A stretch of DNA of 64,000 bases. It comes from an uncultured bacterium (GTDB lineage Bacteria > Hinthialibacterota > Hinthialibacteria > OLB16). The notes below the pieces were generated by a model. It searched no databases, was not told the origin of the DNA, and saw only the letters and a list, made by a program, of their open reading frames with translations. The position numbers and the translations under genes are program-made. This document shows, piece by piece, positions 5,745 to 9,999 of this stretch; within the stretch, counting starts at the first letter, position 1, and every line of letters begins with the position of its first letter. The DNA lies in assembly GCA_964422415.1 (NCBI GenBank), contig CAYRBI010000001.1, positions 62,678-126,677 on the forward strand, given 5' to 3'.

Positions 5745-6848
5745 TCAACCCAGCCGCTTCTGGAAGCGGAGCGCGCTCAAGGCCACCAAGACCACGGCGA
5801 AGATGACTAACGCCACTGTCTGCGGCCAGAGGGCCCACAGTCCGGCTCCACGCAGGATGATCCCACGTAAGATCTGCACGTAGTAAGTGACCGGAATCAA
5901 GAAAGTGGCCATGTAGATCGGAAAGGGCATGGTCTCGCGCGGAAAGGCAAAGCCAGACAAAAGGACGGAGGGGAGCATAATGAGCATCCCGATTTGCATC
6001 GCCTGGCTTTGGGTCTGAGAGACCGTGGAAACGAGAATCCCCATCGCCAGCGCGGGGAGTAAGAACAACACCGACAAGGCCAGTAACAGGAAAACATCAC
6101 CCTCGACAGGAACTCCAAACAGGTACCGCATCAAGACCAAAACGAAGATGGTCTGAACAATGCCCAGCAGGGAGTAAGGCACCAGCTTGCCGATGATGAG
6201 CGCCCACTTGGAAACCGGTGTGACCACCAACTGTTCCAATGTGCCACGCTCTCGTTCACGGACTACCGCAAAGGCGGTCAGGAATACAGTCACGACCTGA
6301 AGGACTATGCCGATCAGTCCCGGGACATAGAAATGCGAGCTGTCCAGGTTCGGATTGAAGAGTACCCAGGGACGGACATCCAGAGAACGTAACGCTGGAT
6401 TAATACCCGCTCTCACCAGGGAATGGATCTGACCAACGCCGAGAGCGGTCTGGACCGCATTGGTGGCCACCGAGCTGTCCGATCCATCCACAAGAACCTG
6501 CACCGTGGCTTGCTCACCCCTGAGTAATTTGGCGCTGTAATCAGGCGGCACGAGAATTCCAACTTTGGCTTTTCCCGCCACAATCTGGCGGTGGATCTCG
6601 TCTTCACCCGCCACCTCCTGAAGTACCCGGAAGGTGTTGGTATTGGCGAAACTCTCAATCAGGCGGCGGCTCTCCACGCTCCGGTCCATGTCATATACCA
6701 CGGTGGGAATATGCTGGACATCCATGTCGATGGCAAAGCCGAAGATGATGGTCTGGATAGCGGGGACTAGGAATACGAATCGAGTACTCGGGTCCCTACG
6801 GATCTGCAGGATCTCCTTGTATACAATCGCCCAGAAACCCCGCATCAT
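5745..6848 (-). CDS. ABC-2 family transporter permease
   Basis: 367 aa; N-terminal 'ILQIRRDPSTRFVFLVPAIQTIIFGFA' then large periplasmic loop and 5 C-terminal TM helices, the YhhJ/ABC-2 layout; last gene of HlyD-ABC operon; start overlaps upstream gene by 4 nt. Confidence 0.8.
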   Translation of the reverse strand: MMRGFWAIVYKEILQIRRDPSTRFVFLVPAIQTIIFGFAIDMDVQHIPTVVYDMDRSVESRRLIESFANTNTFRVLQEVAGEDEIHRQIVAGKAKVGILVPPDYSAKLLRGEQATVQVLVDGSDSSVATNAVQTALGVGQIHSLVRAGINPALRSLDVRPWVLFNPNLDSSHFYVPGLIGIVLQVVTVFLTAFAVVRERERGTLEQLVVTPVSKWALIIGKLVPYSLLGIVQTIFVLVLMRYLFGVPVEGDVFLLLALSVLFLLPALAMGILVSTVSQTQSQAMQIGMLIMLPSVLLSGFAFPRETMPFPIYMATFLIPVTYYVQILRGIILRGAGLWALWPQTVALVIFAVVLVALSALRFQKRLG

Positions 6849-7798
6849 CCGCTTATACCTCCGTGACCATGCATGGCGGTCTGATGGTCTCCATCCTTGC
6901 CATCCGCCTTACGGGTTTGATCACGGATCTCCTTGGGAACATACAAGTCTGGGAAAAGCTTGGCGGCGCATTCCTCGCAAAGACCATGGCTGAAGTGAGC
7001 CTCCGAGTGTTCGGTCAAGTACACCTCGATCTGGGTCCAATATCCTGAGTCACTGCGGATTTTCTTGCAGCTCGCACAGATCGGCAGTAAACCCGAAAGC
7101 GCTTTCACCTCTTTGAGGGCATGACTGAGTTGCTCGATGAGTTCTTCTTGTTTCTTCTGCAAGCTGGCCTTCAATGAGATATCCCGGGCGATGACAAAAA
7201 GAGCGGCACAACCACCGCCCAACGCCAGGAAACCGATCAGATAGATGAGTTGTTTGGCGGCATAGGTCCTTTGGTTAACGATCGCCTCGCGTTGTTCCGA
7301 TTCTTTAAGGATCTCGTTGGTCAAAGCCTCAATCGAAGAGAGAATCTGGTTGGTAAGATCAGTTCCCTTTGATGTAGCAAAACGCTGTAATTCCCAATCA
7401 CCATTCTCTTGAAAGAGCGTCATGGAATCATAAAGATTCAACAGTTTTTCATCGACGATTTGTTTGATTTCCACGACTCGCTTCAAGAATTCAGGATGAT
7501 CTTGGGAAAAATTCAAAACTTCCGCTATTTCTTTCTTGGTTAACTCGACTCCATCCTTGTAGATCTTCATTGCGGAAGGATTACGTGTGAGGATATAACC
7601 ACGGCGGCCATTCTCCGCCAGGAGAACCGCCGGAGTGATATCACCCAACTCTTTCGTGAGAGTAGACCATTCGAGCTGGTCTTTCCCCGCCGCGCGTAGC
7701 GCATCGATGGAACCGAGTGATATCAGGCTCACCACCAAGAGTATACCTAACGACACCACGAATCCCGCGACAATCCAGGTCAAGATGGACTTAAGCAT
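6845..7798 (-). CDS. membrane signalling protein: TM - CHASE3-like periplasmic domain - TM - coiled coil - C-terminal Cys/His-rich (CxxC...H...H..CxxC) putative zinc-binding module
   Basis: 'ENGRRGYILTRNPSAMKIY' matches the CHASE3 hallmark E-x-G-x-RGY-LT; second TM 'LIYLIGFLALGGGCAALFVIA'; C-terminus 'ICASCKKIRSDSGYWTQIEVYLTEHSEAHFSHGLCEECAAKL'; no kinase, cyclase or HTH output recognisable. Confidence 0.6.
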   Translation of the reverse strand: MLKSILTWIVAGFVVSLGILLVVSLISLGSIDALRAAGKDQLEWSTLTKELGDITPAVLLAENGRRGYILTRNPSAMKIYKDGVELTKKEIAEVLNFSQDHPEFLKRVVEIKQIVDEKLLNLYDSMTLFQENGDWELQRFATSKGTDLTNQILSSIEALTNEILKESEQREAIVNQRTYAAKQLIYLIGFLALGGGCAALFVIARDISLKASLQKKQEELIEQLSHALKEVKALSGLLPICASCKKIRSDSGYWTQIEVYLTEHSEAHFSHGLCEECAAKLFPDLYVPKEIRDQTRKADGKDGDHQTAMHGHGGISG

Positions 7799-7810
7799 CA
7801 GATCTCCTCA

Positions 7811-8827: not shown

Positions 8828-8877
8828 TACGCTGATGTCATTTAATCCATGTCCCTATGTGATGGGTTCCGGTCTGC

Positions 8878-9999
8878 CTATTCCTTCCCTTCCTTCAGAA
8901 CATACACATCGGCATACATCCCCGCGCGCAGTTTTTCTCCCTGTTCGAGAATGTCGACCTTGACCTCGAACACGAGCTCAGAGCGTTTTTCAGTGGTTTG
9001 GATATTACGTGGGGTGAACTCGGCCTCGGAACTAAGCCGGCGGACCTTACCGGGAAATTCCTCGCCGGGATAGGAGTCGACAGTCACAGTGACTTGATCA
9101 GCGGAGTGTATGCTCCCCAATCGGTTCTCGGGAATGTAGCAACGCACCCAGGGTGAGTTTTTGAGGTTGAGCACAGCGACTGGTTCGCCCGCTTTAACGA
9201 GATCTCCCTGCTTCAGATCCAGAGTCTCCACCAACGCATCCGAGGGGGACAGGATCCGGGTTTCCTCGAGTTGGGATTGCAGGCGCGCAACATTGGCCCT
9301 GGCTGCCTCCACCGCCGCACGCTGAGCGGCGATTTCCTCCGGACGCGCACCATTATGTAAACGCGTAAGGTCAGCTCGTGCCTGGGCCAATTGAGCCATC
9401 GCCATGGCAATCTCCTCCGGACGCGATCCGCTCCGGAAGAGGGCCTGGCGTTGCAGGGCAATGGACATCTTAGCCCGTGCCGTATCGAAAAGGGCCTGCC
9501 TGTTATCCATCTCCCGGCGGTCCACCGCACCCTTCCCGAAGAGGGTTTTAGTCCGCACATACTCTGTACTTGCAAACTGTAAGTCACTGCGCGCCGATTC
9601 CACCTGCGCCTCGGCCTCGCGGACCTCTTCATCCCGGAAACCCTTACGGCGCAGGGTCAATTCGGCGGAACGGGCCTCGACAACTGCCTCCGCACGGGCC
9701 AGATCCTCCGCACGTGTTCCGACCAGGAGGAGATCCAGGTTGGCCTGTGCTTGAGCTGTGGAGGCCTTGGCTTGATCGAGCTGCGCGGTCAGCTCTTGAT
9801 CCTCCAACAAGACGATGGGCTCCCCGGCCTTGACCTCATCACTCTCCTCGTAATTCACACGCCAGACTCTGCCACCGATCTTCGAACCCACATGAACATC
9901 ATCCACTTCGATCCGTCCATTCAAAACCAGAACCGAATCATCTGGAGAACAACCAGAGACAAAAAGTACCAACAGGGTCGCGCCGAGATATCGTTTCAT
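8878..9999 (-). CDS. HlyD-family membrane fusion (periplasmic adaptor) lipoprotein
   Basis: Start taken at MKRYLGATLLVLFVSGCS (lipobox LFVSGC); long Ala/Glu/Arg/Leu/Gln-rich coiled-coil region flanked by beta-barrel motifs typical of HlyD/biotin-lipoyl-like adaptors; first gene of operon. Confidence 0.85.
   Translation of the reverse strand: MKRYLGATLLVLFVSGCSPDDSVLVLNGRIEVDDVHVGSKIGGRVWRVNYEESDEVKAGEPIVLLEDQELTAQLDQAKASTAQAQANLDLLLVGTRAEDLARAEAVVEARSAELTLRRKGFRDEEVREAEAQVESARSDLQFASTEYVRTKTLFGKGAVDRREMDNRQALFDTARAKMSIALQRQALFRSGSRPEEIAMAMAQLAQARADLTRLHNGARPEEIAAQRAAVEAARANVARLQSQLEETRILSPSDALVETLDLKQGDLVKAGEPVAVLNLKNSPWVRCYIPENRLGSIHSADQVTVTVDSYPGEEFPGKVRRLSSEAEFTPRNIQTTEKRSELVFEVKVDILEQGEKLRAGMYADVYVLKEGKE

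Follow-up and report, generated by a model that had tools for sequence, protein, structure and literature searches.

An operon in an uncultured bacterium of the lineage OLB16 (Hinthialibacterota) raises the question of what a membrane sensor that carries no kinase, cyclase or DNA-binding domain could be doing among the genes of an exporter. The operon lies in a stretch of 64,000 nucleotides (nt) of contig CAYRBI010000001.1 (assembly GCA_964422415.1, positions 62,678 to 126,677), which we call the window and to whose numbering all coordinates refer. On the minus strand, from 10089 to 5745, the list of open reading frames (ORFs) contains four consecutive genes, encoding a periplasmic adaptor of the HlyD type, an ATP-binding cassette (ABC) ATPase, the sensor and an ABC-2 permease. 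This order had been proposed from the sequence alone, in what we call the original prediction, together with a translational coupling of the last two genes, and both claims are borne out by the ORFs and the Pfam matches: the TGA of the sensor gene (6847-6845) overlaps the ATG of the permease gene (6848-6846) as an ATGA at 6848-6845. We conclude that the protein is a one-component sensor of the CHASE3 kind whose output is non-canonical, and that it is not an integral part of the exporter. We further propose, with odds only slightly better than even (a probability of about 0.55), that it serves as an accessory sensor of the envelope, co-expressed with the pump, and that an uncharacterised output module of the zinc type relays its signal to a partner encoded elsewhere.

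A CHASE3 receptor joined to a continuous cytoplasmic helix

The sensor gene (6845-7798, minus strand) encodes a protein of 317 residues whose architecture, as given by the ORF, Pfam, hydropathy and an AlphaFold2 model, is a first transmembrane segment (TM1), a CHASE3 domain, a second transmembrane segment (TM2), a signalling helix, a module with four Cys and one His, and a variable tail. The original prediction had called the N-terminal domain CHASE3-like, and the match is well above the Pfam gathering threshold (PF05227, 55.3 bits against 28, E=8.5e-15). It covers residues 53-172 (7283-7642) and profile positions 17-137 of 138, and within it the E-x-G-x-R-G-Y region is conserved, with R66 invariant. 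Two hydrophobic segments, at about residues 5-29 and at 184-204, lie on either side of this domain.

The full-length AlphaFold2 model, built on ten homologues that combine CHASE3 with the same C-terminal module, has helices at residues 2-71, 74-98, 102-132 and 135-235, with a predicted local distance difference test score (pLDDT) of 80-96 in the periplasmic part. The four-helix bundle of residues 30-183 (7250-7711, minus strand) finds as its best Foldseek match in the PDB the structure 3va9 (TM-score 0.79, normalised to the target; probability 1.00; E=1.4e-3), and the matches that follow are other four-helix-bundle sensor domains. The 3va9 entry shows the sensor domain of HK9 from R. palustris, likewise a CHASE3 domain, and the window sensor shares with it the arrangement of a periplasmic four-helix bundle between transmembrane segments. 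The N-terminal two-thirds of the sensor is a bona fide CHASE3 receptor, with the domain predicted to be extracytoplasmic between two transmembrane helices, an orientation that we infer from hydropathy and the model. A degenerate second permease, the other identity considered for this protein, is ruled out by the presence of only two transmembrane segments and by the confident CHASE3 match.

In the model the last helix runs unbroken from the bundle through TM2 (7184-7249) to residue 235, at the start of the C-terminal module. Its cytoplasmic portion, the signalling helix of residues 206-235 (7094-7183, minus strand), has a heptad-like L/A/V/L pattern, and positions L12, A15, K20 and L22 of the 78-residue segment that we used for searches are conserved in at least 90% of the sequences. 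We infer a dimeric coiled coil here, because of the conservation of L, A, V and L at a/d-like positions, the existence of tandem single-chain versions (described below) and the analogy with signalling helices in general.

In the CHASE3 receptors known so far, the C-terminal part is a histidine kinase, a cyclase/GGDEF or a methyl-accepting chemotaxis protein (MCP) signalling domain. In contrast, the window sensor ends in a 46-residue Cys4/His module without an enzymatic output. Searches of the sensor with Pfam and NCBIfam gave no match at E<=1 to a kinase, GGDEF or helix-turn-helix (HTH) domain, in agreement with what had been claimed.

A near-invariant module with four Cys and one His

The C-terminal module, a conserved unit with a putative metal site, occupies residues 236-283 (6950-7093, minus strand) as delimited by alignments, phmmer and AlphaFold2. 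Its sequence follows the pattern G-LLP-I-C241-x2-C244-KKIR-x-D-x-G-Y-W254 ... F-S-H271-x2-C274-x2-C277, in which the stretch from P239 to C277 corresponds to 6968-7084 and the peptide ICASCKK...CEECAAKL to residues 240-280. In an alignment of 37 diverse modules P239, C241, C244, G252, W254, H271, C274 and C277 are invariant, and among 265 module copies K245, R248, D250, E258 and Y260 are each conserved in at least 97%. The distance from the Pro to the last Cys is exactly 39 residues in 265 of 265 copies, without a single insertion or deletion. The original prediction had described the module as CxxC...H...H..CxxC; the four Cys and H271 deserve that emphasis, whereas H264 is a His in only 89% of the copies and is replaced in the remainder, about a tenth, by R, N, Q or other residues. 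The module is acidic, with a median net charge of -2 over the 265 copies and about -3 in the window sensor, as counted from its sequence.

The module had been regarded as an orphan output, and this description has to be abandoned. A word-indexed search with the whole sensor returned 905 matches; beyond a few CHASE3 proteins, hundreds of them align with nothing but the final 26-30% of the query, and these tail-only matches are PAS, REC, GAF, Cache and MASE proteins that are 55-70% identical over the module. When the 78-residue segment (residues 213-290) was searched with phmmer against 1.84 billion representatives of clusters formed at 50% identity, 21,434 representatives reached E<=1e-3, of which 15,923 also reached E<=1e-10. 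The smaller count is the safer measure of family size because the query includes a coiled-coil-like helix. Members of this uniform family nearly always carry the module terminally, behind many different sensor and receiver domains. A scan of genome contigs found only four C-terminal matches to the module, in metagenome-assembled genomes (MAGs) of Deltaproteobacteria and Smithella, and a tblastn search of plasmids found one weak match.

None of the libraries that were searched has a curated entry for the module. It has no Pfam or NCBIfam match at E<=1 in the window sensor, and the 37 diverse modules give only sub-threshold Pfam matches, to Zn_ribbon_8, Zn_ribbon_3, Zn_ribbon_HMPTM, zf-C4pol and DUF3039, the best at an E-value near 1e-3. 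DUF3039 matches weakly in 21 of the 37 modules (best E=0.002) and zf-C4pol in 13. The proposed assignment to a zinc-ribbon or ZAS anti-sigma profile was not upheld: such profiles had no match at E<=1 in the sensor and stayed below threshold across the 37 modules, and the motif reads H-x2-C-x2-C. No relative in the PDB was detected by phmmer, by sequence profile or by fold match. Neither a paper on c-di-GMP in Leptospira nor a census of archaeal two-component systems (PMC5847659) covers the module, and no relevant paper was found on MASE6, one of the domains that precede it.

An AlphaFold2 model of the module segment (pLDDT 79) places a knuckle after the strand at positions 24-29, and the second Cys pair opens the helix at positions 63-69. 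With one Cys pair after a strand and the other at the beginning of a helix, the fold looks closer to a treble clef than to a ribbon; this reading comes from secondary structure rather than measured geometry. The conservation of four Cys and one His, together with their arrangement in the model, suggests that the module probably binds a metal. Three other identities were considered and rejected. An HNH or His-Me nuclease has no Pfam match here and would require another order of motifs, the sequence RDDK is not the RxxD of a c-di-GMP I-site, and DNA binding by the module is at odds with its net acidic charge.

The module as a probable output domain

Among 135 module representatives analysed with Pfam, the domains that precede the module are PAS (at least 57), MASE6 (21), REC (18), HAMP (7) and GAF (4), with PocR, 4HB_MCP, MASE1, CHASE, CHASE8 and Tll0287-like domains present as well. 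No kinase, cyclase/GGDEF or HTH/DNA-binding domain is among the families listed for these representatives, and a median of only 16 residues separates the end of the module from the C-terminus. It stands, in other words, in the terminal position behind diverse sensors and receivers, without another effector domain, as is expected of an output domain. Membrane anchoring is frequent (42 of 79 carriers sampled from metagenomes), and stand-alone proteins of 94-130 residues that consist of the helix and the module also occur. The named carriers belong mostly to anaerobe-rich lineages, namely Desulfobacterota, Nitrospirota and Smithella.

Many proteins repeat the whole unit, with a membrane or receiver domain, the helix and the module each present twice; examples are P0121 (295 residues) and P0123, in which a receiver and a module occur two times over. 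A protein of 1405 residues (P0126) is built of two long units, each ending with a membrane segment and a module. These tandem proteins resemble natural single-chain 'dimers', and their sequences suggest that the module works in pairs.

If the module is an output domain, a partner might be visible in its gene neighbourhoods. We clustered the 274 neighbour genes around the 79 metagenome-sampled module genes, and the only class present at more than two of the 79 loci consists of signalling proteins, mostly encoded directly upstream and on the same strand of receiver-type carriers. No conserved non-signalling neighbour emerged across the 79 loci, and at none of them was an ABC-2 permease or HlyD gene a neighbour. 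The CHASE3-module proteins that are about 35% identical to the window sensor stand alone or adjoin a HAMP histidine kinase, and none of them has a HlyD or ABC-2 gene alongside.

Several known Cys-rich domains offer points of comparison. HalOD2, which combines a helical segment with two CXXC motifs at the C-terminus of receiver proteins, is a predicted zinc finger restricted to a few haloarchaea, with its CXXC pairs 20-25 residues apart, and TackOD1 is likewise a cysteine-rich predicted zinc-finger output of archaeal response regulators (Galperin and colleagues, PMC5847659). The module resembles HalOD2 in logic only, as a Cys-rich C-terminal domain behind a receiver. Unlike HalOD2, it is bacterial and very abundant, and it has a fixed 29-residue spacing with an invariant Trp and His; HalOD2 is not among the matches listed in the Pfam scans of the sensor and the 37 modules. 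A second parallel is with the ZAS anti-sigma motif and the C4 fingers of DksA/TraR, in which a Cys/His metal site follows a helix or coiled coil and contacts the transcription machinery. The module has the same succession of a helix or coiled coil and a small Cys/His site, here putatively a metal site. However, its H-x2-C-x2-C differs from the H-x3-C-x2-C of ZAS, and neither zf-HC2 nor zf-dskA_traR matched the sensor or the 37 modules at E<=1.

The sensor gene is present in some sister operons and absent from others

The claim that the sensor is wired into the exporter comes out weakened. In its favour, the arrangement of a RhaT gene facing adaptor, ATPase, sensor and permease genes recurs in two related loci (L001 and L002), with sensors 63% and permeases 89-94% identical to those of the window. 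Against it, at least four orthologous operons lack the sensor gene although their permeases are 79-92% identical to that of the window, within a set of close permease relatives that spans 75-94% identity. These are L012/L013 (permease 91%), a contig of JGI 3300075153 (92%), L099 (88%) and the outgroup L015 (79%). In L012 the RhaT, adaptor, ATPase, permease and prepilin-type N_methyl genes are as in the window, and in L099, on a contig (ENA ERZ24907659) that is labelled 'Bacteria_p_OLB16', the ORF upstream of the permease translates as the ATPase. An upstream adaptor of the HlyD type was seen in L012, L015 and the JGI contig, and the downstream N_methyl gene in all four. One outcome that had been named as refuting the original prediction combined absence from orthologous operons with a lack of conserved Cys/His positions; the absence is real, but the Cys and His positions are conserved.

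Where the sensor is missing, the genes for ATPase and permease adjoin or overlap one another. In L012 they share an ATGA, formed by the stop of the first and the start of the second, just as the sensor and permease genes do in the window and in L002. Since the same coupling exists with and without the sensor, the two forms differ by the clean insertion or deletion of one gene. Because sister operons do without the sensor, the pump has no need of it, and the sensor is no integral exporter part.

In a neighbour-joining tree of the permease the three carriers do not group together: the window and L002 lie beside a sensor-less pair, and L001 lies beside the sensor-less L012 and L099. The sensors of the three carriers are 57-63% identical to one another, compared with 81-94% for the neighbouring genes, so that the sensor diverges three to four times faster, and in all three carriers its gene has a GC content of 0.49-0.50 against 0.53-0.59 for the flanking exporter genes. 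This divergence is unevenly distributed. The module is 90-94% identical, CHASE3 51-60% identical and the tail variable, while the reading frame is intact at 316-317 residues in three genomes. Given the intact frame, the near-identical module and the recognisable CHASE3 domain, the sensor gene is maintained by selection where it is present. Tentatively, we regard it as an old resident that was lost at least twice, or that is exchanged by recombination, rather than as a recent single gain, because the operons differ by one gene, the carriers are scattered and the sensor is more divergent than its neighbours.

Two further observations were made on permease relatives. In L014 (JGI 3300042991; permease 84%) the 650 nt upstream contain no ATPase gene and hold a short ORF and a gene on the opposite strand instead, so that the operon may be rearranged or broken in this contig. 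The named relatives at 75-78% identity come from MAGs labelled Omnitrophica and Sumerlaeaceae.

The exporter and its known relatives

The three remaining genes encode the exporter components, namely an adaptor, an ABC ATPase and an ABC-2 permease, in an order that is kept in L001, L002, L012 and L015. The adaptor gene (8878-9999, minus strand) encodes a HlyD/YbhG-type periplasmic protein and predicted lipoprotein of 373 residues, with Pfam matches to HlyD_D23 (1.9e-16) and HlyD_3 (3.4e-15) and a weak match to LPAM_1; its orthologues bear the HH_YBHG hairpin of Pfam. The listed ORF is 8878-10089, with an alternative upstream ATG at 10089. The start at 9999 gives an N-terminus of MKRYLGATLLVLFVSGC, with the lipobox VSGC, and a length of 373 residues as in the orthologues of L002 and L012, and for these reasons it is the better start. 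The ATPase (7811-8827, minus strand; 338 residues) has a single nucleotide-binding domain of the DrrA/RbbA-like kind (ABC_tran, E=9e-33), and in NCBIfam it matches the ATPase part of RbbA at 1e-75. The permease (5745-6848, minus strand; 367 residues) matches ABC2_membrane_3 at E=1.1e-53 and is coupled to the sensor gene by the ATGA described above.

To judge from sequence, the exporter is of the same superfamily type as YbhGFSR and is not an equivalog. The NCBIfam scores fall short of the equivalog level for YbhG (PRK03598, 'secretion protein HlyD', 218 against 393 bits), for DrrAB (drrA, 252 against 312) and for YbhF/RbbA (RbbA, 215-255 against 1050). The window operon resembles the E. coli YbhG-YbhFSR and YhiI-RbbA-YhhJ systems in the YbhG-type hairpin (seen in the orthologues), the DrrA/RbbA-like ATPase, the ABC-2 permease and the order of the three genes. 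It differs from the two-domain YbhF with YbhS and YbhR, and from the RbbA fusion, in that it has just one ATPase domain and one permease gene, and homodimers are therefore implied. The additional sensor gene is also no part of either E. coli system. A function has been described for YbhFSR (PMC7190983). The operon contains no outer-membrane factor gene, and a scan of ten neighbouring ORFs, reaching as far as about 18.7 kb, revealed none either. The tolC gene of E. coli is encoded away from its pump, and an outer-membrane factor could likewise be encoded elsewhere here.

Sensors associated with ABC transporters are well known from the Bce-type systems of Firmicutes, in which BceAB is accompanied by the BceS kinase, a kinase that lacks a sensor domain of its own and reads the transporter. 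The window operon is similar in that a signalling protein is encoded with an ABC transporter and possibly acts beside it. Unlike BceS, however, the window sensor has its own periplasmic domain and no kinase, the transporter is of another type, and the pairing is dispensable in sister genomes. Pfam and NCBIfam revealed no HisKA or HATPase domain in the sensor or the operon, and an intramembrane-sensing histidine kinase of the Bce kind is absent from both.

Flanking signals, neighbouring genes and a repeated palindrome

The four genes are enclosed by promoter-like and terminator-like sites, both of which are consensus matches only. A sigma-70-like promoter match (GTAACA-17-TATACT, 9 of 12 positions; 10093-10121, minus strand) lies in the divergent intergenic region shared by the adaptor gene and rhaT, and such sites occur 3 times against 2.5 expected in shuffled sequence. 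At the other end, a terminator-like hairpin followed by a T-run (5681-5668, minus strand) falls within a palindrome. The sensor gene has its own Shine-Dalgarno sequence, AGGAG, 7 nt 5' of the ATG.

This palindrome, of 110 nt and rich in G/C runs, lies directly 3' of the permease stop (5623-5732). Its 39-nt arms are 92% complementary, and it folds with a predicted energy of -111 kcal/mol (z = -12). It is probably a bidirectional terminator. An element of about 110 nt occurs in three copies in the window, at 5623-5732, 18781-18872 and 45835-45926, with arms rich in G/C runs (GCGGGGGAGGGT[G/T]GGG) that are 76 nt apart; the arm pattern was observed 7 times against 0.16 expected. The second and third copies lie between or after listed ORFs, the first overlaps only a minor ORF of 85 residues, and its central loop is inverted relative to the other two copies. 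In L012 the gap between the permease and N_methyl genes is only 63 nt, and the palindrome therefore cannot occupy that site there. The repeated palindrome looks like an element of the repetitive extragenic palindromic (REP) or miniature inverted-repeat transposable element (MITE) kind that also serves as a terminator.

Beyond the palindrome are two genes on the plus strand. The first (2146-4851) encodes a predicted secreted protein of 901 residues with beta-propeller repeats and a Phosphoesterase domain (PF04185), and the second (4736-5599) encodes the prepilin-type N_methyl protein, the conserved downstream neighbour of the permease gene in all related loci. On the other side of the operon, beyond rhaT, is a stand-alone receiver gene on the minus strand (11262-11663; 133 residues; Response_reg, E=1.8e-24) with no kinase gene alongside. 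A similar single-domain receiver gene is present in the corresponding neighbourhood of L002.

A proposed mechanism and its alternatives

We believe that the observations above are best accommodated by an accessory sensor with a distant partner. The periplasmic CHASE3 bundle would sense an envelope or extracellular cue, and the signal would travel along one continuous helix, comprising TM2 and then the cytoplasmic, probably dimeric, signalling helix, to a rigid acidic module of about 46 residues whose four Cys and one His probably bind a metal. Ligand-induced movement of the helix might alter the way in which paired modules present a conserved acidic surface, and this in turn would change how they bind a conserved partner in the cytoplasm whose gene lies elsewhere. 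Neither DNA binding nor catalysis is likely for the module itself. One common partner is to be expected, rather than many DNA sites, because the module sequence is nearly frozen across unrelated sensors, and its negative charge and frequent membrane anchoring argue against nucleic-acid binding. A single narrow clade of uncultured bacteria has the gene of such a sensor inside a pre-existing YbhG/ABC/ABC-2 operon, where it would have taken over the ATGA coupling of the permease and would be made together with the pump. This placement may tie the sensed envelope cue to efflux, without the sensor being an obligatory pump component.

Some of our own observations weigh against this proposal. The output role and the partner are deduced from domain architecture alone. 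The module model is of moderate confidence and was computed without a metal or a dimer mate, and the full-length model resolves the module poorly, with a pLDDT of about 45 there. A weak similarity to rubredoxin-type knuckles (CPxC) leaves room for an iron or redox role. The permease tree represents one protein and has short internal branches, and none of the three carriers has lost the coupling to the permease (TAATG in L001, ATGA in the others), as would be seen for a stoichiometric pump partner. Finally, our full-text searches, which included peptide strings of the module, found no paper or experiment on any member of the family, and a description may exist elsewhere.

The first competing explanation, raised in the original prediction, makes the sensor a subunit that regulates the pump: CHASE3 would read a periplasmic substrate or stress, and the module would dock on the ATPase or the permease dimer to gate ATP hydrolysis or export. 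The position of the gene between those of the ATPase and the permease, its persistent coupling to the latter, the promoter-to-terminator unit that sensor and pump appear to share (on consensus matches) and the inner-membrane location of both sensor and permease would all be accounted for. Nevertheless, we consider gating unlikely, given that at least four pumps with closely similar permeases manage without the gene, their ATPase gene being coupled directly to that of the permease, and that the carriers are scattered on the permease tree. Moreover, the module is generic, recurring at 55-70% identity in thousands of proteins without transporter context and with an ABC-2 or HlyD neighbour at 0 of 79 loci, and the CHASE3-module proteins of 35% identity stand alone or beside a histidine kinase. 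A different possibility, that the sensor gene is a non-functional hitchhiker decaying after an insertion, would explain its patchy presence, its faster evolution (57-63% identity against 81-94%) and its lower GC content (0.49 against 0.55-0.58). This is scarcely credible for a gene that retains an intact frame of the same length in three genomes, a Shine-Dalgarno sequence, coupling to the permease, a recognisable CHASE3 domain and a module that hardly varies.

Two further alternatives concern the module itself. It could be a cytoplasmic redox or metal sensor, such as a thiol switch or a rubredoxin-like iron switch, or a metal-stapled dimerisation cap, with no output function in either case, so that the protein would integrate signals but have no effector surface of its own. 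The four invariant Cys and the invariant His are what such a device would need, the CPxC knuckle matches the rubredoxin-type Zn_ribbon_LapB weakly, and the anaerobe-rich lineages of the named carriers would suit it. However, this idea would leave receiver-module and PAS-module proteins without any output, and the conservation of the non-ligand surface residues K245, R248, D250, G252, W254, E258 and Y260 points to a conserved binding surface beyond a metal staple; we judge it to be a little less probable than gating. We are slightly more sceptical again of a membrane-tethered transcription factor of the ToxR/CadC kind, in which the Cys4 module would be a DNA-binding zinc finger that autoregulates the operon when the periplasmic signal arrives. 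A regulator would make sense in its own operon, the sequence KKIR is conserved after the first Cys pair, and DNA-related zinc-finger families have sub-threshold Pfam matches among the 37 modules (zf-C4pol in 13, XPA_N in 4). Yet the module is acidic both in the family at large and in the window sensor, it lies about 30 helical residues from the membrane, and roughly half of its carriers are membrane proteins. Likewise, thousands of paralogues with different sensors share a near-identical sequence, unlike what is expected of a family that recognises diverse operators, and neither Pfam nor NCBIfam detects an HTH or other DNA-binding domain.

Our preferred reading, of an accessory sensor that signals to a partner encoded elsewhere, can be taken further. 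The helix and the Cys4/His module might together constitute a major class of bacterial signalling output, so far undescribed and similar in its logic to the MCP tip or GGDEF, that docks in a signal-dependent manner on one universal cytoplasmic target; in the clade of the window, the periplasmic cue and efflux would be coordinated, possibly by direct contact with the pump. We put this extended version forward as a doubtful, if attractive, speculation.

What the operon and the module may reveal

It seems appropriate to separate the local from the general value of these findings. As an arrangement the operon is of local interest only, since its accessory sensor is gained or lost within one narrow clade. 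Nature has supplied both forms, however, and comparing the operon that has the sensor with the one that lacks it would be a clean way to see whether the sensor affects efflux. The module matters more. It is nearly frozen in sequence across more than 15,000 clusters, for which we found no Pfam or NCBIfam model, no solved relative and no paper, and it stands in for kinase and cyclase outputs behind PAS, REC, GAF, MASE and CHASE sensors. Its relevance is greatest in Desulfobacterota, Nitrospirota and candidate phyla. Once its partner is found, thousands of proteins that are currently annotated as 'PAS domain protein' or 'response regulator' would gain an output.

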